From the NCBI RefSeq assembly GCF_000430505.1, contig NZ_AUMD01000021.1:64001-128000 (forward strand): DNA of 64,000 nt, written 5' to 3'. Made by a program: the position numbers and the translations under genes. This document shows positions 1-19,072 of the stretch, one piece after another (position 1 is the first letter of the stretch; each line of letters begins with the position of its first letter). The notes beneath the pieces are model-generated. The model was given only the letters and a program-made list of their open reading frames with translations, was not told where the DNA came from and did not search any database. The stretch comes from Eisenibacter elegans DSM 3317. GTDB lineage: Bacteria; Bacteroidota; Bacteroidia; Cytophagales; Microscillaceae.

Positions 1-2054
1 TGTTCATCAAAATCATACTGATGGATTTCGAGTAGGAGCTCGCGCAGGCGGCGGCTGCCAAATTTTTTGCTGCGGCTGCCTACTTGCCCAAATTGATCCT
101 GGAATCCATCAGAAAAAATGTAGAAGCTCGTAGGCTCAGAGAGCTGGATGGTGTGTAGGTCGAAGCTGTCTTTTTGGACATAGTTGTTGAAGCCCCCAAT
201 AATGATTGGGTCGCCCTTGATATGGTGCAGCTCATTGTTTTGGATATATACCAAGGGGTGCGAGGCACCGGCATACTGAATTTTGGGCAGACCCAGCAGG
301 CTGTAATACTCTACTGGGTAGGTATCGATAGTACAGATGGCGATATCCATGCCATCTTGGTTGCCGGTATGCTCTTGTGACAATACCCGCTGGACGCTCG
401 TCCGGAGCTCGTTCAAAATCTTATCCGGCTCGGTAATGTTGCGTATGTTGACCAATTCATGTAGAATATCATTGCCGATAAGGCTCATAAACGCACCCGG
501 GATACCGTGTCCGGTACAATCTACTGCTGCCAACACTACTTTGTATTTCTTCTGAGCAAACCAATAAAAATCGCCGCTGACAATATCGCGGGGTTGGAAA
601 AACACAAAGGAGTTGGGTAGATGTGCCTGAATGTCTTCAAGCCTGGGCAATATCGCATTTTGGATGCGTTTGGCATACTTGATACTGTCTACAATATGGA
701 CATTTTGCTCCTCTACAATCAGGTTTTTTTCTTGCACTTTTTGCGCTACCAATGTGAGTTCTTGGTTGGCATATTGAAGCTTGTCATATGCTTCATTGAT
801 TTCGGCAGTGCGTTGGCGCACGGTCTCTTCCAAGGTTTGATTGCGCAGGCGTAGCTCACGGCTAATTTCATCAATGATTTGAAAAGCATCTGAAAATCGC
901 CTAGCCAAAACAAACGATTGGATAAAGAAAAATACCAACAAGGCAGTCCAAAAAATCCACACTGATACATAGTAGGGGGCATATACTACGGTGATGAAAT
1001 CAATCACATAGGCCGAAATCAGCACTCCCAGGCCGAGGGTTGTCAGGCCGGCATAGGGGCGCTTGAAGTACCAAGCCCTACCCGAAAGCCAAAAAACATA
1101 TACAAACCCTCCCAGCAAAAACCATTGGAAATACAAAAATAGCAGGGATGAATGGCGTGTGGGCAATAGGATGGAGGCGGCAATCATCAAAACCACAGCT
1201 ACCAACACGACCTTGGCCATCCACAGCTTGGCCTCAAAGGCAAACAGCTCATGTAAGTACAACAACCCTAGATAAAAGGCCAAGCTAAAGCTGATGACCC
1301 TCAGGCTGTGTGCCGCTTCCCAAGACAACAAGGGAACAAACTCTAATAAGAGGCTCTCGCCCAAAAGCGAAAGTTGGATACCGATAGACAGACAAAGCAG
1401 GCCATAGTGCAGTGCTTGGCGCTCTATGCGGCGTTGGCTGTAGAGAATCAGGTGGTAGATACCCATGACCAAGACCGTTGTCAAAAAAAACATTTCTACC
1501 AACTGGCGTGCCCTGCGATTTTTGTCCACTACTTGGTATTCGCCTACCCAAACAGGGCGGCGGCTGCCACTAAAATAGTAATGATGGTTGGAGTATTGCA
1601 AACAAAAATCCAAGGTATCGGCACGGGGTAATAGTAGCATCTGAGGAATGCTGAATGTCGGTACTTCTGTTGCCATATCAGTAGCAGCGTGGCCTGAGCT
1701 ATGCAAAAGTTTCCCGTTGACATAGAGCCGATAGCCCCCTTGGAGATAGGGTAGGCTCAGCGCATAGGCTTCGGCTTGGTGTTTGGGCAAGATAACGCGC
1801 AAATGAAAAGTCCCCCAACGGACTCCTTGTGGTAAGCGGCCAAAACGCACAATTTTGCGTCGGTCATTGGTAGAAGCATAGGTGGTATCGAAGCGCTCAG
1901 CTACGAAGCTCCATTGGGTATTGAGGTTGGCTGCGCCTTCCGAAAGTTGGTATGCACCCGGAGGAGTATCTTTAAATTGCCCAAAGAGCATCAGCGGCAT
2001 AAAGCTCCAACAAGACAAGCTAATCAGTATCAGATAATGGTAGTAGAGCCTCAT
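1..2054 (-). CDS. 7TM-DISM sensor fused to a PP2C/SpoIIE-type serine phosphatase (SiaA-like). The C-terminus runs off the window start.
   Basis: The minus-strand reading frame is open from the ATG at 2054-2052 down to position 1, with no stop in the window, so it is absent from the ORF track. The translation begins MRLYYHYLILISL and continues with a signal peptide, a periplasmic region, about 7 predicted TM helices, a coiled coil and a PP2C-like domain (DFYWF, AVDCTGHGIPGAFMS, FYIFSDGFQDQ). Confidence 0.75.
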   Translation of the reverse strand, partial: MRLYYHYLILISLSCWSFMPLMLFGQFKDTPPGAYQLSEGAANLNTQWSFVAERFDTTYASTNDRRKIVRFGRLPQGVRWGTFHLRVILPKHQAEAYALSLPYLQGGYRLYVNGKLLHSSGHAATDMATEVPTFSIPQMLLLPRADTLDFCLQYSNHHYYFSGSRRPVWVGEYQVVDKNRRARQLVEMFFLTTVLVMGIYHLILYSQRRIERQALHYGLLCLSIGIQLSLLGESLLLEFVPLLSWEAAHSLRVISFSLAFYLGLLYLHELFAFEAKLWMAKVVLVAVVLMIAASILLPTRHSSLLFLYFQWFLLGGFVYVFWLSGRAWYFKRPYAGLTTLGLGVLISAYVIDFITVVYAPYYVSVWIFWTALLVFFFIQSFVLARRFSDAFQIIDEISRELRLRNQTLEETVRQRTAEINEAYDKLQYANQELTLVAQKVQEKNLIVEEQNVHIVDSIKYAKRIQNAILPRLEDIQAHLPNSFVFFQPRDIVSGDFYWFAQKKYKVVLAAVDCTGHGIPGAFMSLIGNDILHELVNIRNITEPDKILNELRTSVQRVLSQEHTGNQDGMDIAICTIDTYPVEYYSLLGLPKIQYAGASHPLVYIQNNELHHIKGDPIIIGGFNNYVQKDSFDLHTIQLSEPTSFYIFSDGFQDQFGQVGSRSKKFGSRRLRELLLEIHQYDFDE

Positions 2055-2317
2055 GGTAGCGGTGATTTTAGCATCAAGATAGTCAGGAGACTGTTATTTC
2101 GAAGCTCGAAATGTGATACAAGCTTCAAAATAACAGCACACCGATGGTGTAGCACGCAATATAAAGCATATTCCGTTAAAATAAAAAAACTTAATTATGT
2201 AAGGTTTTTGAGTGATTCGAACAAATCCCACACCCTGTTGGTGCTAGCAAAACACCAGCAGACAAATCAACTTGATATAACCGGCTTTGGGGCTACAGTG
2301 CAGGCCGTAGCTAAGGG

Positions 2318-3376
2318 CTAAAAATCAGGGCAGGGGTTGCCTTTGCGTACTTTGGGTTTGACTCCTCGGCGCTCAGCACTAGGGATATTCCACACCAGTG
2401 ACAGCTCGTGAGTGCCACCAGTTGCGGGACTGAGGCGCGAGATGGTCAGGTCATAACTATAACCTAACGCCAGTCCGCCAACACGCATTCCCACCAAGCC
2501 GACCAAGGCATCTTGGTTCAGCAGCGTGCCCTCGGGTGCTTTGAAGAGCAAACCTCGATACCATAGCCCAAACACAATAGGGCTGTAGGTATAGTAGAGG
2601 CCAAGGTCGAGCTGGTCAAATGCTCCTTGGTGTTTGTAGAGTAGCGTAGGGGTAAGGCTGATTTCTTTATAGCCAGGGCGGTATTTGTCGCGCCAGTTGG
2701 CAGCCTTTTCAAATACAATTTTGCGACCTACTTGTAAGGTGTAGCGAATTGGCAGGCGGTTTTGTCCTGCGCCGATAGTTTGGTTGGGGCGGGTAAGGTT
2801 ATGGGCCGAAAGGCCTATCCAGAAATACTCATCATAGACCAGCCCGCCAGCGGCAAGGTTGAAATAGCCCAAGTTGCCGTCGGGTAGGGCTTCGGCAGTA
2901 GGGTTGGCGAAATTTTGCTGATTGGCTACAAACTGATCCCCAAAGAGCAACCCGGCAAAACTGCTAGAGCGCAACACATAACTTCCTTGCATCCCGAAGC
3001 GCGCCGTCCACCGGTCGCTCATGGCCAACTCATAAGCATATTGTATCCCAATATCAGTAGATTGTACCCCGCCGCTGGCGGCGGTCATGTCTTGTGTGAT
3101 GAGCAGCCCAATGCCGCTGTTGATACGCTCTAAAAACACATCTACCCCACCCGAATAAGTAACAAAATTGGTTTCGAGGTTAGTCCACTGGTTGCGATAG
3201 TTTAGCCCCAAGCGAGTCTGATGAGTAGAACCTGCAAATGCCGGATTGGTAAAAAGAGGTGCTGCGTAATATTGTGAAAACTGCGGATCTTGGGCCTGCA
3301 AACCCTTAGGGATGAGCAGTATATTCCCCCAAATACAGGCTACTACAACAAGGAATCGGCGGAAATCAGTGTGCAT
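2318..3376 (-). CDS. Type IX secretion system membrane protein, PorP/SprF family.
   Basis: The N-terminus after the signal peptide reads AQDPQFSQYYAAPLFTNPAFAG, the hallmark start of the PorP/SprF family. The protein is about 350 aa with a beta-barrel-like composition. The start was chosen at MHTDF (3376); the ORF extends to 3424. Confidence 0.75.
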   Translation of the reverse strand: MHTDFRRFLVVVACIWGNILLIPKGLQAQDPQFSQYYAAPLFTNPAFAGSTHQTRLGLNYRNQWTNLETNFVTYSGGVDVFLERINSGIGLLITQDMTAASGGVQSTDIGIQYAYELAMSDRWTARFGMQGSYVLRSSSFAGLLFGDQFVANQQNFANPTAEALPDGNLGYFNLAAGGLVYDEYFWIGLSAHNLTRPNQTIGAGQNRLPIRYTLQVGRKIVFEKAANWRDKYRPGYKEISLTPTLLYKHQGAFDQLDLGLYYTYSPIVFGLWYRGLLFKAPEGTLLNQDALVGLVGMRVGGLALGYSYDLTISRLSPATGGTHELSLVWNIPSAERRGVKPKVRKGNPCPDF

Positions 3377-3526
3377 AAGTTGGAAAGATTTATACCAAGG
3401 TTTATTTGATTTGTAGAAAATCAATTTCCCAAACTAATTTCCATTCAGTACAAGGGCTTGGGGTATACCACCACAAACCTAGGTTTGGGAGATTATGTTG
3501 ACAATCTTTTAGTATCCTGCGGCATT

Positions 3527-4285
3527 CTATACAAAGGCCACTTCCTTGACCCCAAAGGTTTGTATAGCTCCTTCGCGCTCAATCTGCAAGCGCCCATAAG
3601 CATCTACCCCGATGATAGTCCCTTCCCATACAACATCGGTACGGAAAAGATGTTTTTGCTCCCTTCGATACAATAGGCTCAAGTAGCGCTCCCTTTGTTG
3701 GCTCGCCGCCCCTGCCTGTAGCAAAAGATATTGTTGTTCGATAGCTTTGAGGAGACGCTCCAATACTTCTTCAGTATAGGCTTGCTGACCGCTGAGCTGC
3801 TTGATAGAACCCGCATGGGGTGCTGTCGCAAAATTGGTCTGATTGACATTAAGCCCTATACCCACAATACACTGCTCAATACGGCTACCCTTCAAGCTGT
3901 TTTCAATCAACAGTCCGCACAGTTTTTGTTCCTCTACGTACAAATCATTAGGCCATTTGATATAACAAACCATTTGGGGCAAGTACTGTTGTAATACTTC
4001 TTGTAGGGCTAACGAAACAGCAATGCTGAGCTGGAATTGACTGGAGGCCTCCAAAAACTTGGGTTTCAATAAGATAGAGAAAGTCAGGTTTTGATATGGA
4101 GCCGATTCCCACCCATTACCTTGCTGGCCTCGGCCTGCTGTTTGTACAGGGGTAACGACCAAAGTCCCTTCGGGTAGGTCGGATTGGGAAGCCAACTGGC
4201 GGAGTGTACTGCTGGTTGACTGACACTCTGGCAGGACAAATCGGCGCTTCCCTACAAATAATGTGTCAAATGAGCCGTTGTTCAA
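3527..4285 (-). CDS. birA: Biotin--[acetyl-CoA-carboxylase] ligase.
   Basis: It has the GRGQQGNGW and KWPNDLY motifs of the BirA catalytic domain, is about 250 aa, and lacks an N-terminal HTH. Confidence 0.8.
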   Translation of the reverse strand: MNNGSFDTLFVGKRRFVLPECQSTSSTLRQLASQSDLPEGTLVVTPVQTAGRGQQGNGWESAPYQNLTFSILLKPKFLEASSQFQLSIAVSLALQEVLQQYLPQMVCYIKWPNDLYVEEQKLCGLLIENSLKGSRIEQCIVGIGLNVNQTNFATAPHAGSIKQLSGQQAYTEEVLERLLKAIEQQYLLLQAGAASQQRERYLSLLYRREQKHLFRTDVVWEGTIIGVDAYGRLQIEREGAIQTFGVKEVAFV

Positions 4286-4325
4286 AGAATTTTTGTAGTT
4301 TTACCCTCAAATTTAACGATAAAGA

Positions 4326-4706
4326 ATGAAACAAACCAAATTGGCAACAAATTCGAAGGAAATAGGGATGTTGGCTGCACAAGGGATGCAGGAGAAAAAG
4401 GGCAAAAATATTTTACTCTTAGACCTCACGCAGGTACATCAAGCGGTTGCCGACTATTTTGTGATTTGTTCGGGTGGCACACACAACCAAGTCGATGCCA
4501 TTGCTGATTCGGTAGAAGATGCTATCTATAAAGCTACCGGAGAGCACCCTTGGCGCAAAGAAGGCCGCCAAAATGGCGAATGGATTATCATCGACTATTC
4601 TAACGTGGTGGTACATGTGTTCCGAAGCGACCGCCGCGCTTTCTATGCCTTAGAAGACCTTTGGGGTGACGCTCGCATCACAGCCATCGAGTCAGAAAAA
4701 GACTAA
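4326..4706 (+). CDS. rsfS: Ribosome silencing factor RsfS (Iojap-like).
   Basis: It is a 126-aa protein with DYFVICSG, VVHVF and LEDLWGD, which matches the RsfS/Iojap pattern. Confidence 0.75.
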   Translation: MKQTKLATNSKEIGMLAAQGMQEKKGKNILLLDLTQVHQAVADYFVICSGGTHNQVDAIADSVEDAIYKATGEHPWRKEGRQNGEWIIIDYSNVVVHVFRSDRRAFYALEDLWGDARITAIESEKD

Positions 4707-4766
4707 ACCGAACAAACCCGACCTCGAATTTGTTTTGAATACTCTAACGACCTGTATTAGCATAAA

Positions 4767-6797
4767 ATGAGCAATAATAAGAAAAAACTACCCGTTCCCC
4801 CACCGCGTGGAGGGGGCTACCAGCTTTGGATTATCGTAAGCATTGTCGTAGTCATTATCGGGGTTACCTACTTTAGTAAAAGTGGAGCAGCCGTAGAAAT
4901 TACAGAGCGCGAATTTCACAAGATGTTGGCCACTGAGAAAATCCAAGAGGTGGTCGTCTACAACCGCGAAGAAGTAGAGGTTACACTCAAGCCGGCTGCC
5001 CTGCCCGAATACGAATCGCGCCTTACGATGCAGCGCTCGCCTTTCCCCACAGAGCGAGGTCCACATTTCAAGTTCCGGATTATTTCCCCAGATAATTTCT
5101 CTGACCGCTTCGTAAAAGTACAGGCTGAGGCCGGAATCCCCGAAGACAAACGCATTGGCTTCCGCTCCGAACGCCGCTCTGATATCGGGCTACAACTGCT
5201 CAACTGGGCATTGTTGATTTCGATGATTGTTGTAGTCTGGATTATTATGCGCCGGATGTCAGGTGCAGGTGGACCCGGAGGGCAGATTTTCAACATCGGC
5301 AAATCTCGGGCAACACTTTTTGATGCCGAAAACCGCGTCAAAATCACTTTCAATGATGTCGCCGGGTTGGATGAGGCCAAGGAAGAGGTTCAAGAAGTAG
5401 TAGACTTTTTGCGTAGCCCCGAAAAATACCGCGACCTAGGGGGCAAAATCCCCAAAGGGGTACTCCTTGTAGGCCCTCCGGGCACAGGCAAAACCCTATT
5501 GGCCAAGGCTGTAGCCGGCGAAGCCAATGTCCCTTTCTTTTCGCTCTCAGGCTCTGACTTTGTGGAGATGTTTGTAGGAGTGGGTGCGGCTCGCGTCAGA
5601 GACTTGTTCAAACAAGCCAAAGAGAAAGCGCCTTGTATTGTATTCATCGATGAGATTGATGCCATCGGGCGATCTCGTGGGCGTGGCGCAATGCCCGGTG
5701 CCAATGATGAGCGCGAAAATACACTCAACTCTCTCTTGGTAGAAATGGATGGATTCTCGACCGACACCGGCGTAATCATCCTAGCAGCTACCAACCGCCC
5801 TGATGTACTCGACTCTGCCCTGATGCGTCCAGGACGCTTCGACCGCCAAATCAGCATTGATAAGCCCGATATCGTAGGACGCGAGGCCATCTTCAAGGTA
5901 CACCTCAAGCCTTTGCGTAAGTCCGAAGGCGTAGATGCTAAGAAATTAGCTGCCCAAACCCCTGGGTTTGCCGGTGCCGAAATCGCCAACGTATGTAACG
6001 AGGCTGCCCTCATAGCCGCCCGACGCGACAAAAAGGCCATCGATATGCAAGATTTCCAAGATGCCATCGACCGTGTGATTGGAGGATTGGAGAAGAAGAA
6101 CAAGCTCATCTTGCCCGAAGAGAAACGTACCGTAGCCTATCACGAGGCAGGCCACGCTGTCGCCGGATGGTTCTTAGAACACGCAGACCCCTTGGTCAAG
6201 GTCAGTATTGTACCCCGTGGGGTAGCCGCCTTGGGATATGCCCAATACCTCCCCCGCGAGCAGTTCCTCTATACCACAGAGCAACTCTTGGACGAAATGT
6301 GTATGACTCTTGGCGGACGCGCTGCCGAAGACATTGTGTTTGGGAAAATCTCCACCGGTGCACTCAGCGACTTGGAGCGCATTACCAAAATGGCCTATAG
6401 TATGGTCTCTATCTATGGAATGAACGATAAGATAGGCAATGTGTCGTTTTATGACTCCAAACAATCGGACTACTCGTTCAACAAACCATACTCTGATGCG
6501 ACGGCTCAAACCATCGACGAAGAGGTACGCAAATTGATAGATACGGCCTATGAGCGCACTAAGGCGCTCCTGACCCAGCACCGCGAGGCGCTCGAAAAGG
6601 TAGCTCAAGAGCTGCTCTCCAAGGAGATACTATTCCAAACAGATTTGGAAAACCTCATTGGCAAACGCCCCTTTGACCGCCAGACTACCTATCAGGCTTA
6701 CACCAATGCGGCTAGCCCTGAGGCCGAAGCCGCTGCGCCTGCTAACGAAGTTACGGCCACACAGGAAGCCCCCTCAGACAACGAAAACGCTGCCTGA
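4767..6797 (+). CDS. ftsH: ATP-dependent zinc metalloprotease FtsH.
   Basis: It has an N-terminal TM segment, Walker A GPPGTGKT, an AAA domain, an SRH region, and the HEAGHA zinc-binding motif. Length is 676 aa. Confidence 0.95.
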
Positions 6798-7438
6798 TGA
6801 GCCAAAATAGTCGCGAACAGATATTGCGCAATATCCAACAAGCGCTACAGAAACCAACCGAGAAGCCGATGCCTAAGCCCGACTTCTCGGCTTCGGTATA
6901 TATCCCCCCTGTGTCGCCGTATTTGGATGTCGCTTTTGCCGAAAATTTTAAGAAGAACAAAAGCACTTTCTTCTTTTGTCAAAGCATCGAAGAAGCCCTG
7001 CTGACACTCAAACGCTACTTGCAAGAAAAGGCTTATGAACACGTGTTTGTATGGGAAGAATATTTGCAAAAACTGATGGATGTGGCACAATTGCCCTACC
7101 AAAAAGACGAAGCGCTGCTATTGCAGTCTGAAGTAAGCATCACACTTTGCGAAGCCCTAGCCGCCCGCACAGGCAGCATCTTGGTCTCCTCTCGCCAGCA
7201 GGCAGGGCGGCGGCTGAGTATCTATCCTCCGGCACATATTGTGGTGGCGTTTACTTCCCAAATCCAACCCGACCTCAAAGAAGCGCTGACCTTCGTACAG
7301 GAACAATATACTCCCAACTTCCCCTCGATGCTTTCGGTCATCAGTGGGCCCAGCCAAACGGCAGACATTGAAAAAACCTTGGTATTGGGCGCACACGGCC
7401 CCAAAGAACTGACACTCTTTCTCATTGATGAGTCCTGA
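6797..7438 (+). CDS. LUD-domain protein (LutC/YkgG family).
   Basis: This is a 213-aa protein whose pattern matches the LUD/DUF162 domain. Its start overlaps the ftsH stop (ATGA). Confidence 0.55.
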   Translation: MSQNSREQILRNIQQALQKPTEKPMPKPDFSASVYIPPVSPYLDVAFAENFKKNKSTFFFCQSIEEALLTLKRYLQEKAYEHVFVWEEYLQKLMDVAQLPYQKDEALLLQSEVSITLCEALAARTGSILVSSRQQAGRRLSIYPPAHIVVAFTSQIQPDLKEALTFVQEQYTPNFPSMLSVISGPSQTADIEKTLVLGAHGPKELTLFLIDES

Positions 7439-7478
7439 TATCTCGCTCCAATCTTTTTTAGCGCCGCATTTTCCGAAG

Positions 7479-8249
7479 ATGAATACCGGAAAGCGGCTTT
7501 TTTTTGCCTCTGACTTCCACTTGGGCGCACCTAATGCGGATAAAAGCCGCCGCCGCGAGTTGGATATTATCGATTGGTTGGAGCAAATCCGCCCCGAAGC
7601 TGCTGCTATTGTGTTGGTGGGAGATATTTTTGATTTTTGGTACGAATACCGCCACGTTATCCCTAAAGGCTTTGTGCGCTTCCAAGGGAAACTGGCCGAG
7701 TTGAGTGATGCCGGAATCCCCATCGCTTTTTTTACTGGCAACCACGATATGTGGATGCAACGCTACTTCTGGGAGGAACTGGGCATACCCGTTTATCGTC
7801 AGCCACAAAGCCTCCATATCGCCAACCAAAAACTATACATCGGCCACGGCGACGGCTTAGGGCCGGGCGACTATACCTACAAGTTGCTCAAAAGGGTATT
7901 TGAAAACCGATTGGCACGATGGCTCTTTTCGCGGCTTGTACATCCCGACTGGGGAGTGGGCTTGGCCCTCTTTTGGTCGAGAAGCAGCCGCGCCCGAAAT
8001 CAGAAAAAAGGAGAAGAGCAATTTATGGGCGAAAAAGAATGGCTCTGGCAGTATTGCCGCAGCTTAGAACAAACCAACCCCCACGATTGGTACATCTTCG
8101 GGCATCGGCACTTGCCCCTTGACTTGCCCGTAGGCACACAAAGCCGCTATATCAACTTGGGCGAATGGCTGCACCATTATACCTATGCTAGCTATGACGG
8201 CCAACAAGTACATTTGCAGACTTTTGAACCCGTGTCAGTAGCCTCTTAA
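7479..8249 (+). CDS. Calcineurin-like metallophosphoesterase, LpxH-like UDP-2,3-diacylglucosamine diphosphatase.
   Basis: The motifs are FASDFHLG, VGDIFDFW, GNHDMW and GHGDGLG. The ORF track starts at 7425; MNTGKR at 7479 was preferred as the start. Confidence 0.6.
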   Translation: MNTGKRLFFASDFHLGAPNADKSRRRELDIIDWLEQIRPEAAAIVLVGDIFDFWYEYRHVIPKGFVRFQGKLAELSDAGIPIAFFTGNHDMWMQRYFWEELGIPVYRQPQSLHIANQKLYIGHGDGLGPGDYTYKLLKRVFENRLARWLFSRLVHPDWGVGLALFWSRSSRARNQKKGEEQFMGEKEWLWQYCRSLEQTNPHDWYIFGHRHLPLDLPVGTQSRYINLGEWLHHYTYASYDGQQVHLQTFEPVSVAS

Positions 8250-8303
8250 ATCTCTGAAAATCAGTGATATTTTACTTGGAAAGTAGATGCGCTCAAAACC
8301 ATT

Positions 8304-8358
8304 GAGCCTCAAGAAAATCAAATCCAGCAAACCCGCCAATCAGGTAAATCTTGGGATA
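8304..8358 (+). repeat. Family-A intergenic repeat, partial copy (second half).
   Basis: The sequence gagcctcaagaaaatcaaatc...aatcaggtaaatcttgggatat matches the consensus tccttgagaatcaagaaaatcaaatctt.tgaatcttggtataa. Confidence 0.5.
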
Positions 8359-9829: not shown

Positions 9830-9857
9830 TTGTCTGATACATTAATTTTTCCCGTAC

Positions 9858-11031: not shown

Positions 11032-11067
11032 GCGAGCGATAACGCTAGTAATACAAACAACCATACA

Positions 11068-11096
11068 AAGCACCCCTTGGGGGTGCTTTGTTGCGT
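11068..11096 (+). terminator. Putative rho-independent terminator.
   Basis: The hairpin is aagcacccc ttg ggggtgctt followed by tgttgcgtt. Confidence 0.45.
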
Positions 11097-11317
11097 TAAA
11101 AAAATAGTAACAAAAACGTGCCAAATCAGTTCAAAGACAAAGAAGCGTAGGCTTATGGAGGAAACACTCAAAAAAAGCCTTCGAGGTATTGTTTGAACGC
11201 GGAGTTTTTTATCTTTGGTAAAAATAAATTTGCAAGGTTTTAGCGGGAAGGTATCGATAGGTGGCCGCATCGCCCGCAAAGCTATGCTAAACCTACACCC
11301 ATTAAATAGATAGCACT

Positions 11318-12004
11318 ATGCAGATGCCCATGGAGGAAAACTCTTGGTTGTATATGGAGCTGAACAAGGTGTCGCCACACTATCTCGACATCTTGTGGGC
11401 AGATGGATGGCGGCATTTTGGCAGCTTTTTTTTCCGGGATAAGTTTGGGTTTCATCGCGGTCAGAAAGTCCCTATCTTGCCGCTGCGTATCAATCTCCAC
11501 AAGTTCCGTTTTTCTAAGAGCCAACAAAAGCTGCTCAAACGACAAGCCGCCAGCGAAGTACTGATACGGACAGCACATATTGATGACGCTAAATACGAAA
11601 TGTTTTTCAAACACATTCATCGGTTTGAAGACAATGTCCCCGATTCTATCCACGATTTCTTGGGCCAAGACCCCTCACAAATCCCAGCCCCGATGTTGGA
11701 GTGTTGTTTGTTGAGGGAAGGGCGGATGTATGCAGTCAGCTTTTTTGATAAGGGCAACAAGGCCAGCTCTAGTGTATACGCTATGTTTGACCCGGCCTAT
11801 GGCCAGCTCAGCCCCGGCTTACACACACTCTTGGCCGAGATAGAGTTTTCCCTTGCCCATCAAATGGATTATGTCTACCTAGGGTATGCGTACCGTGAGT
11901 CTTCACATTATGACTACAAAAAACGCTTCTATGGCCTAGAATTTTATGACTGGAATGGCAAATGGCACGATTATCCACGCCTTACTGGAGAAGATGAAGC
12001 ATAA
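11318..12004 (+). CDS. bpt: Arginyl-tRNA--protein transferase family (bacterial Bpt, Asp/Glu leucyltransferase-like).
   Basis: It is 228 aa with an N-terminal ATE_N-like segment (WRHFG, FFRD) and a C-terminal YLGY...YK..F motif. Confidence 0.55.
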   Translation: MQMPMEENSWLYMELNKVSPHYLDILWADGWRHFGSFFFRDKFGFHRGQKVPILPLRINLHKFRFSKSQQKLLKRQAASEVLIRTAHIDDAKYEMFFKHIHRFEDNVPDSIHDFLGQDPSQIPAPMLECCLLREGRMYAVSFFDKGNKASSSVYAMFDPAYGQLSPGLHTLLAEIEFSLAHQMDYVYLGYAYRESSHYDYKKRFYGLEFYDWNGKWHDYPRLTGEDEA

Positions 12005-12008
12005 TAGG

Positions 12009-12106
12009 CCCAATCAAAACTGGTTTGGGAAATGTATTTGAAAATCCTTGAGACCCAAGAAAATTAACCCTTACAAACCCTCAAATCAAGTGAATCTTGG
12101 TATAAA
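12009..12106 (+). repeat. Family-A intergenic repeat, full copy.
   Basis: The sequence is cccaatcaaaactggtttgggaaatgtatttgaaaatccttgagacccaagaaaatt...caaatcaagtgaatcttggtataaaa. It begins 4 bp after the bpt stop. Confidence 0.7.
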
Positions 12107-12189
12107 ATCTAGGCAAAAGCTTGGATAGTTCATTAGAACTCTGTAATATTGCAATCGCTTTTGGAAACACCTGATTTTCGAAAGCCTCC

Positions 12190-12266
12190 GGACCCATAGC
12201 TCAGTCGGTTAGAGCATCTGACTCATAATCAGAGGGTCGCTGGTTCGAGCCCAGCTGGGTCCACCA
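12190..12266 (+). tRNA. tRNA with a CAT anticodon, either Met elongator-type or Ile2 (lysidine).
   Basis: A cloverleaf can be drawn on ggacccatagctcagtcggttagagcatctgactCATaatcagagggtcgctggttcgagcccagctgggtccacca. The G1-C72 pair argues against an initiator tRNA. The anticodon stem-loop resembles tRNA-Ile(CAU). Confidence 0.85.
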
Positions 12267-12293
12267 AGCTGTTAGCCAAACAGACTAATACAA

Positions 12294-12380
12294 ATGCCTC
12301 AAACAATACTACATACTTCAGGAAGTTGGTGGCGCGGTCAAGACCTGACTGCTGCCGAAAGACCTGCGTATGTACGGTGA
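12294..12380 (+). CDS. trpL: Putative trp leader peptide, 28 aa, with tandem Trp codons.
   Basis: The ORF ATG...TGA encodes MPQTILHTSGSWWRGQDLTAAERPAYVR, with TGG TGG at 12327-12332. A hairpin and an intrinsic terminator follow immediately, just upstream of trpE. Confidence 0.45.
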   Translation: MPQTILHTSGSWWRGQDLTAAERPAYVR

Positions 12381-12431
12381 GGAAAGCAGCACACCGACAG
12401 GTGTGTTTGTGTACTCCCAAAAACTTACAAA

Positions 12432-12460
12432 GCTCATTGCCTCGGCAGTGAGCTTTTTTT
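12432..12460 (+). terminator. Intrinsic terminator (attenuator) in the trpE leader.
   Basis: The 10-bp stem is gctcattgcc / ggcagtgagc (one G-U pair) with a 2-nt loop, followed by T7. It lies 64 nt upstream of the trpE ATG. Confidence 0.65.
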
Positions 12461-12523
12461 GTTGTCCAAACTTGATTACAGCTTCCCCAAAACACTTCTT
12501 ATCACCTATTTCTACCCAACACA

Positions 12524-13945
12524 ATGCTCCCACGCTACCAACTCCAAACCCAACACAAACGCTTGCTGGCTGACACACTGACGCCGGTGAGTATCTATCT
12601 CAAGGTGCGCGACAAGTTTCCCAATGCCATCTTGCTCGAAAGCTCGGACTACCACGGAGCCGAAAACACCTTTTCCTATATTTGCTTCGCACCAATGGCA
12701 GGCTTTAGTCTCAGCCAAGGAAAGGTTACGTATAGTTACGCCAATGGCCAAAATATCCAGCGTCAGCTAACACAACCCCAAGAGGCTATCGGGGCTTTGC
12801 AAACTTTTTTGGACAGCTTTGAGGCCGAAAAGCTGCCCTTCCATTTCATCACCCAGGGGGTGTTTGGCTATACGACATACGATGCTGTCCAGTATTTTGA
12901 AGAAGTTTCGATTCAGCGCCCAAGCAATGCCGACACTCACATTCCGGAGATGCGTTATCACCTCTACGGCTATGTAATTGCCATCAACCACTTCAAAAAC
13001 GAGCTATATCTCTTTGAGCATAGCTGCCCGGAGCTGCCCGGGGTTACCAATGGGTTAGAGGTCATCGAGGCGCTCCTACACAACAAAAATGTACCTGCCT
13101 ACAGCTTCAGCTGTGTTGGCGAAGAACAGGCCAATATGGACGATGCCCACTTTCTGAAGATGATTGCTCAGGGGCAACAACACTGTAAGCGGGGCGATGT
13201 GTTTCAGATAGTGCTCTCTAGGCGCTTTTCGCAAGCTTTCAAAGGAGACGAGTTTAATGTGTACCGAGCGCTGCGCTCCATCAACCCCTCGCCCTACTTG
13301 TTTTATTTTGACTATGGTAGCTTCAAGATTTTTGGCTCTTCGCCCGAAGCGCAGCTGGTGGTCAAAGGGCAAAAGGCCGAGATACACCCCATCGCGGGGA
13401 CGTTCAAACGTACCGGCAACGACGAGTCCGACGCAGAGCTAGCCCGCCTACTCGCCGCCGATGAAAAAGAAAACGCTGAGCACGTGATGCTCGTAGACTT
13501 AGCCCGCAACGACCTCAGCCGCAATGGCAGTCAGGTACAGGTCGAGACCTTCAAAGAAATCCAGTATTACTCACACCTCATCCACTTGGTGTCGAAGGTA
13601 ACGGCACATATCCCACCACAAACAGCGGCCTTACAGTTATTTGCCGATACTTTTCCCGCCGGCACGCTCTCCGGCGCTCCCAAACACCGAGCCCTGACCC
13701 TGATAAACCGCTACGAGCCTTCGAACCGAGGGTATTATGGCGGCGCTATTGGCTTTATGAGCTTCGAGGGAGAGCTCAACCACGCTATTATGATTCGTTC
13801 ATTCTTGAGCCAAGGCAACCGGCTGCATTATCAGGCCGGCGCGGGGGTTGTTTCTAAGTCTGTTCCTGAGAATGAGCTAGAAGAAGTGCATAACAAGCTT
13901 CGCGCCCTGCGTACTGCCCTTCAAGAAGCGCAAAATATCCGCTAA
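12524..13945 (+). CDS. trpE: Anthranilate synthase component I.
   Basis: It has the chorismate-binding enzyme fold (LVDLARNDLSR, GAIGF), is 473 aa, and is followed by a glutamine amidotransferase gene. The Trp-codon leader upstream supports TrpE over PabB. Confidence 0.8.
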   Translation: MLPRYQLQTQHKRLLADTLTPVSIYLKVRDKFPNAILLESSDYHGAENTFSYICFAPMAGFSLSQGKVTYSYANGQNIQRQLTQPQEAIGALQTFLDSFEAEKLPFHFITQGVFGYTTYDAVQYFEEVSIQRPSNADTHIPEMRYHLYGYVIAINHFKNELYLFEHSCPELPGVTNGLEVIEALLHNKNVPAYSFSCVGEEQANMDDAHFLKMIAQGQQHCKRGDVFQIVLSRRFSQAFKGDEFNVYRALRSINPSPYLFYFDYGSFKIFGSSPEAQLVVKGQKAEIHPIAGTFKRTGNDESDAELARLLAADEKENAEHVMLVDLARNDLSRNGSQVQVETFKEIQYYSHLIHLVSKVTAHIPPQTAALQLFADTFPAGTLSGAPKHRALTLINRYEPSNRGYYGGAIGFMSFEGELNHAIMIRSFLSQGNRLHYQAGAGVVSKSVPENELEEVHNKLRALRTALQEAQNIR

Positions 13946-13963
13946 TCCCTTTGAGAAATCAAT

Positions 13964-14530
13964 ATGAAAATTTTAGTACTCGACAACTACGACTCTTTTG
14001 TGTACAATCTCGTACATCTTTTGCGCGAACTAGGGCATAGCCCTGAGGTGTTCCGCAACAACAAACTGCCCTTGGAGGCAGTGGCAGCTTATGATAAAAT
14101 CCTGCTTTCGCCGGGGCCGGGCATCCCCTCCGAAGCAGGGTTGATGCCGCAAATCATCGAAGCGTATGCTGCTCAGAAAAGCATCTTGGGCGTATGCCTA
14201 GGCCATCAGGCCATCGGAGAGGCGTTTGGTGCCCAACTTCACAATTTGCCCGAAGTCTTGCATGGCATCAGTTCTACGATGCACATCACAGATACTTCAG
14301 AGCCGCTTTTTGCCGGCTTGCCTGAGCAACTCTCCATCGGCCACTATCATTCTTGGGTTGTAGAAGCAGGAAGTCTACCCGAAAGCCTGCGCATCACCGC
14401 AACGGATGAGCGCGGCCACGTAATGGCCTTGGCTCATACCCGATATGATGTGCGTGGCGTGCAATTTCACCCTGAGTCGGTGATGACCGCCCACGGACGA
14501 GAAATGCTGGCCAATTGGTTGGGAATCTAA
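13964..14530 (+). CDS. trpG: Anthranilate synthase component II (glutamine amidotransferase).
   Basis: It has the class I GATase motifs GVCLGHQAIG and GVQFHPES and is 188 aa. Confidence 0.8.
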   Translation: MKILVLDNYDSFVYNLVHLLRELGHSPEVFRNNKLPLEAVAAYDKILLSPGPGIPSEAGLMPQIIEAYAAQKSILGVCLGHQAIGEAFGAQLHNLPEVLHGISSTMHITDTSEPLFAGLPEQLSIGHYHSWVVEAGSLPESLRITATDERGHVMALAHTRYDVRGVQFHPESVMTAHGREMLANWLGI

Positions 14531-14544
14531 GCGCCTCTCCCACT

Positions 14545-14657
14545 ATTGGCTCATTTATATCAAGACGCACGAGATTTAAGGATGTACAGGGTTTGATTTT
14601 CTTGATTATCAAGGATTTTCAGCACACATATTTCCCAAACCAATTGTGGTTGAGTAT
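14545..14657 (-). repeat. Family-A intergenic repeat, full copy in reverse orientation.
   Basis: The sequence is ttatatcaagacgcacgagattt...gattttcttgattatcaaggattttc...atttcccaaaccaattgtggttgagtata. It starts 15 bp after the trpG stop. Confidence 0.7.
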
Positions 14658-14685
14658 AAAAAAACCCACGGGTGAAGCCGTGGGT
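14658..14685 (-). terminator. Putative terminator for the minus-strand genes.
   Basis: The hairpin is cccacgg gtgaagc ccgtggg preceded by A7 on the plus strand, which gives a T7 tail on the minus strand. Confidence 0.5.
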
Positions 14686-14761
14686 TAAAAAATAAGATTT
14701 CTTACTATCCTGAAGCCAGCGTTATTTCATAAACTGGTGTCGGCTTAGGGTTATTGATGGT

Positions 14762-15053
14762 TTATTTTTTTCGCAGTTGTTGTATGGTCTCTATTGCCAA
14801 CCCGGTGAGTTGTTGGATAATATGCTCATCCAATCCTTCTCTAATCGCTTTTTGGGCAGTCTGAACTATAGTGTTTACCTGATTTTTCTTTGTCGCGGTA
14901 GTTTAGGGCTTTTACAGATGGCAACTCATTGGCAAGCAGGTTATTGAGGAAATCAGTCAGTAAATCTTTGTTGCGTTCGGTATCAAAGATACGCTTGAAT
15001 CCGAAATCAGTAAAGAGGTCAATACAGCGCCCTATGGATGAAGCGTGAGCCAT
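14762..15053 (-). pseudogene. Degraded remnant of an Rpn-family (PD-(D/E)XK nuclease-family) transposase or recombination-promoting nuclease.
   Basis: The 70-aa ORF starts MAHASSIGRCIDLFTDFGFKRIFDTERNKDLLTDFLNNLL, matching the conserved N-terminus of Rpn/YhgA-like proteins (YIDPLTDFGFK.LFG...NKDLLIDFLN). After a frameshift, a +1 frame encodes NTIVQTAQKAIREGLDEHIIQQLTGLAIETIQQLRKK, which resembles the Rpn C-terminal helix-turn-helix tail. The catalytic core of about 200 aa is missing. Confidence 0.45.
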
Positions 15054-15093
15054 TGTGTGGGAGGTTAGGGAGATGTAGGGTTTGGGCAGTAGT

Positions 15094-15462
15094 TTAGGTT
15101 TTTGACCAATTGAGCAGTTCTCGCTGCCTTCGGGGTAGCTTGTCTACTACAAGTTCGTAGGAGTGTCGTATCCAATGTCGTATTTCATCGTCGGTGAGTT
15201 CTCCATTCATCAGGATGGTATTCCAATGTCGTTTGCTCATGTGATAACCCGGCTGTATAGCCTCATACATTTCGCGTAGTTCAAGGGCTTTTTCGGGATC
15301 ACATTTGAGGTTGATACTCTCAAATTCGTTGAGGTCAGTTGCGGCAAACATTTTATCAAACACCTTGAAAACGAGGGTATTCTCATCAAAAGGGAGGCTT
15401 TCACTTGTTTCGGGAAAGGCTAGGCAGTAGTTTCTAAACTCTTCTATATTCATAAGCGGCAA
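15094..15462 (-). CDS. MmcQ/YjbR family DNA-binding protein.
   Basis: This 122-aa protein has FDENTLVFKV, KCDPE and HMSKRHWNTI, which match the MmcQ/YjbR family. Confidence 0.65.
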   Translation of the reverse strand: MPLMNIEEFRNYCLAFPETSESLPFDENTLVFKVFDKMFAATDLNEFESINLKCDPEKALELREMYEAIQPGYHMSKRHWNTILMNGELTDDEIRHWIRHSYELVVDKLPRRQRELLNWSKT

Positions 15463-15761
15463 GCAACTTGGGTTAGGGAGAAATCGTCGGAAGTAGAAAG
15501 ATACAAAAATTTGAGCTAAACCCCATCCGCCTCCCCTCAGATGCCAGCCAAACGAGCCGGCAATGGCTATGTTGAGAGTCCAGATATATTCAAAAACACC
15601 TTATTTATTACGTATAGAGTTACTTAGGTGCTTACAAGGGAATTCAAAAGTACGGTATTCGGCAAGCCGAGTATCGCGGTCTAAATCTCGAAACAAATCG
15701 TTTTGGGACGAGTTATCAAACAAGTATTTGTCTGAAACCCAAACCGCTAAACAATAGATTT

Positions 15762-16181
15762 TTGGAAACATTAAGCAATAGAGATTCTGTGGTGAAAGCA
15801 TTAAGACCCCAATTACCTATAGAAGTGCCTAGCGCAGAGCATGCGTTGGCGCATTTCCAGACCAATGTTTTGCGCCCCATCCTCAAGTTTCAGCACGAGG
15901 TGCTGATGCAATATTTTGAGGCGCATCTCAAACGGACGCATACTGATTTGGCCAAAATACCCCTCAGCAGCCGTATAACTTATATTACACAGATGTTAAA
16001 CCGTAATCAACCCCTGAAGTATATGTTGTTTGGGATGATTTGGGGGATGCTGACCGAAGAAGAGGCGTTGTTTTATGAGCAAAACCATCAAGAACTGAAC
16101 AAGCGCCTGACCCAGTTTCTGGCCAAGCGTTTGTGTGATGGTTGGTGTGAGTCATATCCGGAGGGATGCCTCTTAGCATAG
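15762..16181 (+). CDS. Hypothetical protein.
   Basis: It is a 139-aa ORF with coding-like composition, convergent with pheA and overlapping it by 9 nt. Confidence 0.4.
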   Translation: METLSNRDSVVKALRPQLPIEVPSAEHALAHFQTNVLRPILKFQHEVLMQYFEAHLKRTHTDLAKIPLSSRITYITQMLNRNQPLKYMLFGMIWGMLTEEEALFYEQNHQELNKRLTQFLAKRLCDGWCESYPEGCLLA

Positions 16182-17249
16182 CTTGACATAACTGCCAAGA
16201 CAGCGTATATTGGCTGCGTAGCGTGTCAGAATATCTTTTAAGTTGTCTTGCTCGGCGTGGCCGTCGATTTCGATATAAAAACGAGAGTTGAATTTATGTT
16301 GTTCACGCGCCGGGCGGCTTTCAATTTTACTAAGATTGATGCGTGCCTTGTCAAACTCACTCAAGAAAGAGGCTAGGCTGCCGGGTTGGTCGGGGAGCTG
16401 GGCGACAATGGTAGTTTTATCTTGACCACTAGGTTGGTTGTTGAAATCCTTACTAAGAATCAAAAACCGTGTACGATTGTTGGGGCTATCTTCGATGTTA
16501 TAAAACAAGATAGGCAGCTGATAGAGCTTAGCGCCGATGGCAGCACAGATTGCGGCGCTGTTGTCGCGTTCCATAGCGAGTTGAGCGGCTTTTGAGGTTG
16601 ATTCTACTGGCACCAGCTCTGCGTTGGCCTGAGGGAAATACTCTTCCAAAAACTTCTGGCATTGCAAAAAACCTTGGTCTTTGGAGAAGATATAACGAAT
16701 GTCTTTAAGGTTGTCGTAGCGGCTGGCAAAAGTATGATGTATGGGCAGCAAAATTTCAGCAACAATTTTGACATCGTGCTCCATGAGTGCATCAAGGCTT
16801 TCAGCGACTACACCAGCCTGGTTGTTTTCTATCGGGATGACACCAAAGCGAACCCTTTCTGTAACGACATTCTCAAAAACAGATTTAATAGAAGGTAAGG
16901 GTAGATATTGGCTCATTACGCCAAAGCGGCTTTCGGCGGCCTGGTGTGTGTAGCTGCCTTCAGGGCCAAGATAGGCTACTTTTTCGGGCAGTTCTAGGTT
17001 GCGGCTGGCGGCAAATATTTCTAAAAATACTGCTTCGATGGCCGCACGGTTGAGGGGCGCGTTGGCTGTAAGCTTACCGCTCAGGCGGTCGATAATGTCT
17101 TTTTCGCGCTCAGGACGATAGATAATGGCGTTATTGGTGCGTTTTAGTTCGCCTACTTGGCGAACTACCTCCATCCGTTGGTTGAGTAACTCTACCAATT
17201 GATCATCTATCTGGTCTATGGTTTGGCGTAGGGCTTCGAGCGTTTTCAT
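16173..17249 (-). CDS. pheA: Bifunctional chorismate mutase / prephenate dehydratase.
   Basis: The N-terminal chorismate mutase region reads MKTLEALRQTIDQIDDQLVELLNQRM. The prephenate dehydratase domain (VAYLGPEGSYTHQAA, TRF) and a C-terminal ACT domain follow. The ORF extends to 17351; the start was chosen at MKTLE. Confidence 0.85.
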   Translation of the reverse strand: MKTLEALRQTIDQIDDQLVELLNQRMEVVRQVGELKRTNNAIIYRPEREKDIIDRLSGKLTANAPLNRAAIEAVFLEIFAASRNLELPEKVAYLGPEGSYTHQAAESRFGVMSQYLPLPSIKSVFENVVTERVRFGVIPIENNQAGVVAESLDALMEHDVKIVAEILLPIHHTFASRYDNLKDIRYIFSKDQGFLQCQKFLEEYFPQANAELVPVESTSKAAQLAMERDNSAAICAAIGAKLYQLPILFYNIEDSPNNRTRFLILSKDFNNQPSGQDKTTIVAQLPDQPGSLASFLSEFDKARINLSKIESRPAREQHKFNSRFYIEIDGHAEQDNLKDILTRYAANIRCLGSYVKLC

Positions 17250-17515
17250 TAGCTTCTCTCTATCAAATATTTGGCTACAAATTGCTTCAAAGTAAGACTT
17301 ACCCAAAGGCAAGCGCAACAAAGTGTAGCAAAAAACGAGGGCGTGATTCAAATTAACCGTCGTGTTTGTGCTAATACAAGTAACAATGGTACTTTATAGA
17401 GTTTTGCTTGTCAGGTTCATTTACCAAAAGCAAGAGCATAGCGGACGGAAGTTGAACGAAAAAGTGTAGCTTTGTTGTTGATTAATGATTGTTTACCCAC
17501 AAACTATTAATAACT

Positions 17516-17953
17516 ATGATTAAAGCAGCTATCCATACGGCCTACGGAGTAATGGAAGTGGCATTTTTTGAAAAAGATGCTCCTAAGACAGTAGAAAACT
17601 TTGTAAAGCTTTCTGAATCAGGATTTTATGATGAACTGACTTTCCATCGTGTTATTCCCAACTTTGTTGTGCAGGCTGGATGCCCCGAGGGTACAGGAAG
17701 GGGAGGCCCGGGCTATCGTATTGACTGTGAGCTTACTGGCGACAACCAATACCACGACCGTGGCGTGCTTTCGATGGCTCACGCAGGGCGCAACACCGGA
17801 GGGTCGCAGTTTTTTATCTGCCATAACCGCCAAAACACACAGCACCTTGATCGAAAACATACTGTTTTTGGCAAGGTAGTAGATGGAATCGATATTGTTG
17901 ACCAGATTAAGCAAGGCGACAAAATCGAGAAAATTGTGATTGAGCGCAGCTAA
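17516..17953 (+). CDS. ppiB: Peptidyl-prolyl cis-trans isomerase, cyclophilin type.
   Basis: It has FHRVIPNFVVQAG, GGSQFFI and HTVFGKVV. The start was chosen at MIKAAIHT; the ORF begins at 17489. Confidence 0.85.
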   Translation: MIKAAIHTAYGVMEVAFFEKDAPKTVENFVKLSESGFYDELTFHRVIPNFVVQAGCPEGTGRGGPGYRIDCELTGDNQYHDRGVLSMAHAGRNTGGSQFFICHNRQNTQHLDRKHTVFGKVVDGIDIVDQIKQGDKIEKIVIERS

Positions 17954-18056
17954 AAAATGATGCTACCGCGACTTAGACCTATAAAGTCAGCAACAACTCC
18001 CTTAATGAGAGGTTGGCAAACCTGTTGTTAAGGGAGTGGGCAAAAATACAGTTACA

Positions 18057-18094
18057 AAAACCTATAGGGCTTTTACAAAAGCACTATAGGTTTT
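18057..18094. terminator. Bidirectional terminator between ppiB and the DUF1987 gene.
   Basis: The long near-palindrome aaaacctatagggcttttacaaaagcactataggtttt has T-runs on both strands. Confidence 0.5.
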
Positions 18095-18112
18095 GGCTTA
18101 GGCTGGTAAGTT

Positions 18113-18490
18113 CTACTTAGAGTGTAGTTCGATATTAAGGTTAATCAACGATTTGAAGTCATTGCCAGATTCTTCCATATCCTCATCTCCATCATCATAA
18201 AACCATTTGACAGAGACCTCGGTTTTGTTGGTTTCTTGTACCTTTTCGAGTTGGCGCAGCAAGTCTAAGATACACTTAGAAGAGGCGGTGTTGAAATATT
18301 CCAAATTGAAAACCATCTTGGTTTGCAGCTTTGGATTGTTCATATATTGTTCTAGCCAGTCGAGCAGCGGCTTATAAAAATTAATTGCGTGTTCGGGGAT
18401 AGATCTACCTGAAATTTCTAGTTCACCCGTCTCTGCGTTGAAATGCACATATGGAGAGCGTGCAGTTCCTTCAATATGAATGTTTTCCAT
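18113..18490 (-). CDS. DUF1987 domain protein (SiaC-like partner-switch phosphoprotein).
   Basis: This 125-aa protein has MENIHIEGTARSPYVHFNAETGELEISGRSIPEHAINFYKPLLDWLEQY and LEYFNTASS, which match the DUF1987/SiaC pattern. It lies immediately downstream of the SiaB-like kinase gene. Confidence 0.65.
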   Translation of the reverse strand: MENIHIEGTARSPYVHFNAETGELEISGRSIPEHAINFYKPLLDWLEQYMNNPKLQTKMVFNLEYFNTASSKCILDLLRQLEKVQETNKTEVSVKWFYDDGDEDMEESGNDFKSLINLNIELHSK

Positions 18491-18514
18491 TTAGAATAGA
18501 TTGCTAATGGTTTG

Positions 18515-19072
18515 TTAAATAACAACTTTTACTTGTATGCTATAAAATGCGTACGCATCATCGATGACATCAAAGTGGTAGTCAATTTTTTCGCCTGATT
18601 TACGCGCAATATCTATCAGCCCAAGACCAGCGCCACCGGTATCAGAAGTAGGCTCTTCGGTGGTATTTTCGAGGACTTCTTTGTAGAGCGCTTTGAGTGC
18701 TTGGCTATCCAATGAGTTGACGTGATCGAGGCGCGTTTGCAACTTTTCGATGCGATTGGCCTTCATATAGTTGCCCGTAAGTACATAGTAAGCTTCTGGG
18801 CTTTTTTTAATCATTAGTACGGCAGAGAGGTACTTTGGGTTGTCGTTGTCTTGATGTTGATAGTAATTATAAATGTTCTGCAAACACTCTAAAAGGATGT
18901 TAAACACCTTTTTTTTGACCTTGGTATCTTCGGCTCCCTTGTCGAGCTTATCGTCAATGAGTTGGAGGATAGAGGTTAAGAGGCTATCAGTAATCTCGCC
19001 CTTGAAATACAGGATGATTTGCTCATCTTGCATTTTTTTGAAGTAATCATAGACATCTAACATCATAGACAT
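18515..19072 (-). CDS. SiaB-like protein kinase with a GHKL/anti-sigma-factor-type ATPase fold.
   Basis: This 185-aa protein has a C-terminal GGAGLGLIDIARKSG (G-X-G-L-G-L ATP-lid motif of RsbW/SpoIIAB-like serine kinases). It is co-oriented and adjacent to the DUF1987 gene. Confidence 0.55.
   Translation of the reverse strand: MSMMLDVYDYFKKMQDEQIILYFKGEITDSLLTSILQLIDDKLDKGAEDTKVKKKVFNILLECLQNIYNYYQHQDNDNPKYLSAVLMIKKSPEAYYVLTGNYMKANRIEKLQTRLDHVNSLDSQALKALYKEVLENTTEEPTSDTGGAGLGLIDIARKSGEKIDYHFDVIDDAYAFYSIQVKVVI

Follow-up and report, generated by a model that had tools for sequence, protein, structure and literature searches.

How does a SiaABC-type partner switch deliver its signal when no diguanylate cyclase is encoded beside it? 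This question is raised by a stretch of 64,000 nucleotides from Eisenibacter elegans DSM 3317 (contig NZ_AUMD01000021.1, positions 64,001 to 128,000; hereafter the window), which encodes a SiaB-like kinase, two SiaC-family (DUF1987) proteins, SiaC-1 and SiaC-2, and a PP2C phosphatase fused to a 7TM-DISM membrane sensor. So far, studies of the SiaABC switch have dealt with it only as the regulator of one Pseudomonas diguanylate cyclase. Our analysis leads us to favor, with some reserve, the reading that the window carries a version of the switch that is independent of cyclic diguanylate (c-di-GMP) and whose target, not of the SiaD type, would be encoded elsewhere. An original prediction made from this DNA had drawn the Sia set as a span from position 1 to 19,072; the genes proved to be real, on the strands and at the positions given and with matches far stronger than chance would yield, while most of that span is unrelated housekeeping DNA. 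The features are summarized in Table 1.

The product of the siaB-like gene matched the Pfam family DUF6272 with 143.8 bits (E = 3.2e-42; gathering cut-off 26.6 bits) and passed the 85-bit cut-off of the NCBIfam family NF038262, 'SiaB family protein kinase', with 168.2 bits. A sequence search of the PDB matched it end to end to SiaB of P. aeruginosa (PaSiaB; 6kko_A, 6.6e-16). An AlphaFold model built with 24 homologues in the alignment (predicted local distance difference test, pLDDT, of 82) aligned to 6kko_A with a template modeling (TM) score of 0.85-0.91 and a root mean square deviation of 2.0 Å, and a kinase fold, on which the original prediction had staked its assignment, is thus present in the model. 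The remote structural matches of the model were all GHKL kinases, i.e., SpoIIAB, RsbW, pyruvate dehydrogenase kinase, the CA domains of histidine kinases and CheA P4. Furthermore, the catalytic glutamate (E61 in PaSiaB, predicted to be its catalytic residue; PMC7647112), the QN of the N-box and the GGAGLG (GxGxG) lid are invariant across the 24 SiaB homologues and align with those of PaSiaB. Judging from this homology, the gene product is predicted to be a GHKL-fold Ser/Thr kinase with its predicted catalytic residues intact, in agreement with the SiaB-like kinase proposed at this place. The longest open reading frame (ORF) reaches position 19,072 (185 aa); since the homologues begin at MLDVY, the true start is probably 19,063. 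Two further proteins of ~315-320 aa (P0049 and P0053) consist of two SiaB (DUF6272) domains in tandem.

The siaC-1 gene begins 24 nt downstream of siaB. Its product matched the Pfam family PF09345 with 143 bits (4.4e-42; gathering cut-off 24.5 bits) and SiaC in the PDB (1.1e-15), which bears out the DUF1987 protein expected next to the kinase. SiaC-2 matched PF09345 with 129.4 bits (7.2e-38). The acceptor threonine, which was to be located by alignment with P. aeruginosa SiaC (PaSiaC), is kept in both proteins: the loop YFNT68AS of SiaC-1 aligns with YLNT68SS of PaSiaC, and T69 of SiaC-2 aligns with PaSiaC T68. By homology, SiaC-1 and SiaC-2 would thus both be STAS-like phosphoproteins with a retained acceptor threonine. 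Y65, N67 and T68 are invariant in all 90 SiaC-family sequences compared, as expected for positions that the kinase and the phosphatase would recognize. Directly after siaC-1 lies a hairpin that resembles an intrinsic terminator and is followed by a U run (-19.2 kcal/mol, z = -4.87; none of 200 shuffles folded as well). The neighboring genes are a divergent guaA on one side, and a cyclophilin gene and pheA. With the hairpin after siaC and the divergent guaA on the other side, siaB-siaC appears as a self-contained two-gene unit.

Table 1. Positions of the Sia-related features in the window and the evidence for each
Feature	Position	Strand	Evidence
siaB-like gene; predicted SiaB-family GHKL Ser/Thr kinase, 182 aa	18515..19063	-	NCBIfam, Pfam, PDB match, model
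siaC-1; predicted SiaC-family (DUF1987) phosphoprotein, 125 aa	18113..18490	-	Pfam PF09345, PDB SiaC
Intrinsic-terminator-like hairpin, then U run, directly after siaC-1	18057..18094	-	RNA fold
Candidate input phosphatase; 7TM-DISM membrane sensor, coiled coil and SiaA-type PP2C	1..2054	-	Pfam, PDB, NCBIfam
siaC-2 (SiaC' clade); SiaC domain (residues 1-125) and 60-aa acidic tail (61494-61673)	61119..61676	+	Pfam PF09345

About 100 nt upstream of siaB, TAAATTTG at 19174-19200 (minus strand) matches the Bacteroidota -7 motif TAnnTTTG. Its status is uncertain: a TTTG lies 14 nt further upstream, a gap shorter than the usual spacing. A sigma-70 promoter scan was uninformative, and Bacteroidota promoters fall outside its coverage.

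To place these genes in a wider context, SiaB relatives were collected with a pattern scan that took one genome from each GTDB species. At least 591 loci, or species genomes with one, were found, and the best 80 were fetched. Nearly all of these are from Bacteroidota, mostly contigs of metagenome-assembled genomes, and the bin labels of a few (Synechococcus, Arenicella, Hydrocarboniphaga) are implausible. ORFs at the loci were called simply, as longest ORFs, and clustered by BLAST single linkage.

No cyclase is linked to the switch. A Pfam scan of the window that took in 54 of its 57 large ORFs (those left out are three of 98-128 aa) revealed no GGDEF, EAL or PilZ domain. A probe made from the GGDEF domain of PleD, validated on the PDB (344 bits for PleD; 1.8e-29 for SiaD, 7e6g), matched nothing at E ≤ 10 when run against the window and 100 loci translated in six frames (1.6 Mb), and no GGDEF lies within 10 kb of SiaB in the 80 fetched loci. 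The absence of a linked cyclase claimed for this DNA therefore holds in the window and extends to its relatives. The output might still be c-di-GMP if SiaC activated a diguanylate cyclase whose gene lies in another part of the genome, given that no function of the SiaC family other than cyclase control is known from experiment and that the search covered the window and the loci, not the whole E. elegans genome. We nevertheless judge this unlikely: besides the negative searches, diguanylate cyclases were absent from the first four sequenced Bacteroidetes in an early census (PMC1183210), none of ten multidomain SiaC proteins scanned carries a GGDEF domain, and the positions of SiaC that contact SiaD show no conservation and, in part, the opposite charge.

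This last point concerns the surface by which SiaC would reach its target. PaSiaC binds the SiaD stalk through D29, Y31, M75, R103, L107 and E110 (PMC8457831). In an alignment of ~27% identity, the majority residues among the 90 sequences at these positions are R, I, L, D, A and D, respectively, and the replacements often reverse the charge. Since the residues that hold SiaD are replaced, SiaC of Bacteroidota would have a different binding partner, and the changes on its surface argue for a target other than SiaD.

Neither gene neighborhood, in the window and the fetched loci, nor domain fusions revealed the target of SiaC. A profile search of 1.84 billion representatives yielded 5962 SiaC-family clusters, and many of the top matches are tandem SiaC-SiaC fusions. 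Fusions of SiaB to SiaC were also found (P0295, P0263) and fit a kinase-substrate pair; PaSiaB and PaSiaC are known to form a 2:2 complex (PMC7647112). Among all the SiaC fusions noted (P0257-P0276, P0263, P0278, P0295, P0307, P0308), others combine SiaB with three SiaC domains, HEAT repeats with two SiaC domains, an SLT transglycosylase with SiaC, or a zinc ribbon with SiaC. A Pfam scan of the ten multidomain proteins mentioned above showed no recognized enzyme or DNA-binding output domain, and two of them have unassigned C-terminal extensions of ~190 aa. The tandem fusions, together with adjacent SiaC pairs, suggest that the two SiaC paralogs pair with each other.

Across the fetched loci, SiaC follows SiaB in 77 of 80. 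Two main layouts recur. The first is the bare siaB-siaC pair, as in the window and its Cytophagales relatives (L004-L010). The second, seen in ~25-36 of the 80 loci, is a same-strand block of four genes encoding a Reg_prop/Y_Y_Y-transmembrane-SpoIIE PP2C (~1070 aa), a ~274-aa lipoprotein, SiaB and SiaC; in one locus (L051), three tandem PP2C genes precede this block. Relatedness among many of the loci with this block (SiaB identities of 30-99%, with a median of 74%) means that their counts do not represent independent events. The lipoprotein (L011-L083, e.g., L040:889-1713 and L074:5819-9034) has an xSCKK lipobox, belongs to no Pfam or NCBIfam family and is absent from the window; being extracytoplasmic, it more likely acts on the input side. 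A survey for a recurrent fourth partner, as had been suggested, thus returned the PP2C and the lipoprotein, but no recurrent cytoplasmic partner adjoining the pair. Hidden Markov models of the Lipo3 lipoprotein, the c25 coiled-coil membrane protein and clusters 14, 23, 90 and 132 had no match in the six-frame translation of the window and its flanks.

Other recurrent neighbors were judged to be inherited synteny and rejected as partners, namely a methyltransferase, a ZIP transporter and a peroxiredoxin, all three on the opposite strand, as well as a downstream block of an aldolase gene, accD and a gene for an extracytoplasmic function (ECF) sigma factor. The ECF gene bears on a mechanism in which the output runs through the kinase: in the manner of RsbW or SpoIIAB, SiaB would sequester a sigma factor or another effector and free it when unphosphorylated SiaC binds. 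SpoIIAB and RsbW, both anti-sigma kinases, are structurally closest to SiaB once its own family is set aside, and in ~9 loci an ECF sigma gene lies a few genes further downstream. These genes are, however, parted from siaC by the housekeeping genes aldolase and accD and look like synteny inherited within one clade; moreover, the surroundings of siaBC in the window include no sigma factor gene, and Pseudomonas SiaB does not bind the effector. We thus consider an output through SiaB improbable.

In four Cytophagales-type loci, the gene directly after SiaC (L006:3590-4180, L007:4713-5303, L010:10997-11590 and L080) encodes a protein of ~196 aa whose N-terminal part is a coiled coil and whose C-terminal part contains membrane segments; it has no homologue in the window. 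By analogy with the coiled-coil stalk to which PaSiaC binds, this protein could be a binding partner.

The second DUF1987 paralog of the original prediction, SiaC-2, is likewise genuine. It is 100% identical to a protein annotated 'DUF1987 domain-containing protein' in Eisenibacter elegans, and its tail contains 28 Asp or Glu residues among 60. The gene sits 42 kb from siaB-siaC in a tight plus-strand run (59618-63543) that encodes an Nnr/YjeF NAD(P)HX repair enzyme, SiaC-2, a MazG pyrophosphohydrolase and a protein of the endonuclease/exonuclease/phosphatase family. The siaC-2 start and the Nnr/YjeF stop overlap by 8 nt, and a gap of 25 nt separates the siaC-2 stop from MazG; this Nnr-SiaC-2-MazG context is not common to the other SiaC' genes examined. 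A word-seeded search returned 16 relatives of SiaC-2, and several of the loci combine SiaC-family and PP2C genes. The gene order is SiaB-SiaC-(TPR-PP2C)-SiaC' in L100, (GAF/PAS-PP2C)-SiaB-SiaC-(TPR-PP2C)-SiaC' in L103, SiaC-SiaC-(TPR/GAF-PP2C) in L104 and (TPR-PP2C-REC)-SiaC in L090. A neighbor-joining tree places SiaC-2 with the distal SiaC copies of L100 and L103 and the solitary ones of L099 and L101, and SiaC-1 with the SiaB-adjacent Cytophagales copies. Because its clade sits in the SiaB-SiaC-PP2C-SiaC' operons of these two relatives (L100 and L103), SiaC' belongs with such modules as a distinct and recurrent paralog, and the module would be dispersed in Eisenibacter.

Acidic low-complexity segments vary in their place among SiaC' members, being C-terminal in SiaC-2 and internal in P0247 and L101:6001-6678, where the insert precedes a WxYEEEDEDM motif. 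Elsewhere (L102:6054-14381), a solitary SiaC-family gene lies between a gene for an AraC-type regulator and a contractile-injection-system cluster (Pvc16_N, sheath, tube and baseplate).

With the kinase and its substrates at hand, the phosphatase remains to be placed. The PP2C gene runs past the edge of the window, so that the C-terminal 37 residues lie to its left. The full-length protein is P0121 (721 aa). SiaB and the PP2C of the window are identical or near-identical to genes of a 179-kb metagenome contig of the Joint Genome Institute (JGI). The predicted fusion of a 7TM-DISM sensor to a PP2C domain was recovered, with matches to 7TMR-DISM_7TM (PF07695, 4.8e-16, residues 184-386) and SpoIIE (PF07228, 1.4e-8), and the DUF1987, SiaB-like and SpoIIE family memberships proposed for profile checking therefore all held. 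The metal-binding motifs SGDFYW, VDCTGHG, SDGF and TDDVLIIG are all present in P0121. Its only sequence match in the PDB at E ≤ 1e-3 is the PP2C domain of SiaA (6k4e, 8.7e-31), with none to RsbU, SpoIIE or RsbX. By homology, the phosphatase at the window edge is thus predicted to have a catalytic domain of the SiaA type. The extracellular DISMED2 domain (PF07696) was undetected in the window protein at E ≤ 0.1, and the precomputed Pfam entry of P0121 lists only PF07695 and PF07228, while PF07696 is listed for other homologues of P0121. The carbohydrate signal suggested for this sensor is accordingly a weak proposal.

How closely this phosphatase is tied to siaB-siaC is less clear. The operon-linked PP2Cs of relatives score 187-192 bits on the SiaA model, compared with 171 for the window PP2C, which places the latter in the same catalytic subfamily. 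This subfamily is large, with 1896 matches at E ≤ 1e-20 among 8000 candidates scored, and its sensors comprise 7TM-DISM, Reg_prop, TPR, receiver, HAMP, PAS/GAF, Cache and MASE2 types, all with 40-54% identity to the window protein; likeness of the catalytic domain therefore fails to single out the window PP2C as the partner. The gene lies 16 kb from siaB-siaC with housekeeping genes in between, next to a PorP/SprF gene upstream and a convergent SDR gene downstream, and the left flank of the P0121 gene contains no SiaB, SiaC or lipoprotein gene. The proposed counterpart of SiaA was hence substantiated in its catalytic type but not in a specific tie to the pair. A link to gliding or the type IX secretion system (T9SS) through the PorP/SprF neighbor was rejected, and the corresponding output idea found no support: the adjacency is missing in two full-length homologues of the same architecture (L105, L106) and in two partial ones that cover the 7TM and PP2C parts (L084, L085).

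These findings leave room for a narrower reading, in which the module would consist of siaB-siaC only, the 7TM-DISM PP2C would serve another pathway or other substrates, and the cognate phosphatase would be another paralog encoded elsewhere, e.g., of the TPR or Reg_prop type. The distance and the neighborhood of the PP2C gene and its equal similarity to many sensor classes speak for it, as do the operon-linked PP2Cs of relatives, which carry Reg_prop/Y_Y_Y, TPR or GAF/PAS sensors and were never seen with 7TM-DISM; neither of the close 7TM-DISM homologues L105 and L106 has SiaB or SiaC nearby. Yet the catalytic domain is as SiaA-like as those of the linked enzymes, SiaA is its sole PDB match, and loci with several PP2C genes show that several inputs per switch are normal. 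We regard this narrower reading as possible but rather doubtful, and the window PP2C as a candidate input whose place in the module is tentative, given that no feature specifically links it to the siaB-siaC pair.

Returning to the favored c-di-GMP-independent switch, SiaB would bind and phosphorylate SiaC-1 on T68 and probably SiaC-2 on T69. At least one SiaA-type sensor phosphatase would strip the phosphate once its sensor domain is triggered. Unphosphorylated SiaC, possibly as a SiaC-1/SiaC-2 heterodimer, would then bind and regulate a target other than a SiaD-type diguanylate cyclase, with its gene in another part of the genome. The 7TM-DISM PP2C would be one plausible input among several paralogous phosphatases rather than a dedicated partner.

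Several points weigh against this model. The Bacteroidota members are known from sequence and models only, and the comparison of interface residues hangs on an alignment of low identity. The GGDEF negatives cover the window and the loci, so an unlinked GGDEF protein may exist elsewhere in the E. elegans genome. Subfamily similarity is what ties the P0121 phosphatase to SiaC. Finally, the Nnr-SiaC2-MazG run that encodes SiaC-2 seems unrelated, and SiaC-2 might work on its own.

The closest known system is SiaABCD of P. aeruginosa (PA0172-PA0169). The window shares with it a SiaB-family GHKL kinase with conserved catalytic glutamate, a DUF1987/SiaC phosphoprotein with a YxNT(S/A)S acceptor loop, a membrane sensor with a SiaA-type PP2C domain, and the adjacency of kinase and substrate genes. 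Unlike SiaABCD, it has no SiaD cyclase but two SiaC paralogs, one of them acidic-tailed, and the SiaD-binding residues of SiaC are replaced; the phosphatase lies outside the operon and carries a 7TM-DISM sensor instead of the periplasmic/HAMP region of SiaA. Only siaB and siaC are adjacent, with the PP2C gene 16 kb and siaC-2 42 kb away. All proteins stay below the cut-offs of the NCBIfam equivalog models, with 98.9 bits against 225 for SiaB (NF038264), 86.4 (SiaC-1) and 73 (SiaC-2) against 150 for SiaC (NF038265), and 134 (window fragment) and 170.6 (P0121) against 700 for SiaA (NF038263), the latter match covering only the PP2C part, at positions 375-656 of the model. Since none reaches its cut-off, we consider them members of the Sia families and not orthologues.

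The combination of a PP2C, a small STAS-like phosphoprotein and a GHKL kinase also resembles RsbU-RsbV-RsbW and SpoIIE-SpoIIAA-SpoIIAB of Firmicutes, to whose kinases SpoIIAB and RsbW the SiaB model is remotely similar; the substrate, however, belongs to DUF1987 and not to the STAS family of Pfam, and no sigma factor is linked. Partner switches in which the antagonist regulates an enzyme and not a sigma factor have been described with HptB-HsbR-HsbA-HsbD in P. aeruginosa and BgrSTUWV-BgrR in Sinorhizobium meliloti (PMC8457831). Unlike the genes of the window, which include no cyclase, those two systems have diguanylate cyclases as their final element and rely on canonical STAS proteins.

The presence of the family here is not new, as the NCBI annotation pipeline already labels such Bacteroidota proteins 'SiaB family protein kinase' and DUF1987 is known to be widespread (PMC8457831). 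Within the library that was searched, nothing was returned on a cyclase-free version, a SiaC' paralog or a PP2C-lipoprotein-SiaB-SiaC operon; DUF1987 is mentioned there in a single paper and DUF6272 in none. The kinase-substrate core is widespread in a phylum in which cyclases are rare, with different sensor phosphatases, frequent duplication (SiaC') and an altered target-binding surface. Tentatively, SiaB and SiaC, with or without SiaC', could form a shared phospho-switch hub of Bacteroidota on which the large family of SiaA-type sensor phosphatases, with 7TM-DISM, Reg_prop/Y_Y_Y, TPR, REC, HAMP or PAS/GAF sensors, would converge and whose c-di-GMP-independent output would run through a new class of DUF1987 target. 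If so, the ancestral role of the family would be that of a general signaling switch and not cyclase control. The identity of the target would show how many Bacteroidota sensor phosphatases transmit their signals, and what the general role of DUF1987 is.

Apart from the Sia genes, the window also encodes two N-degron enzymes, an ATE_C-type aminoacyl-tRNA-protein transferase (11318-12004, plus strand) and a Leu/Phe-tRNA-protein transferase (45718-46458, minus strand).

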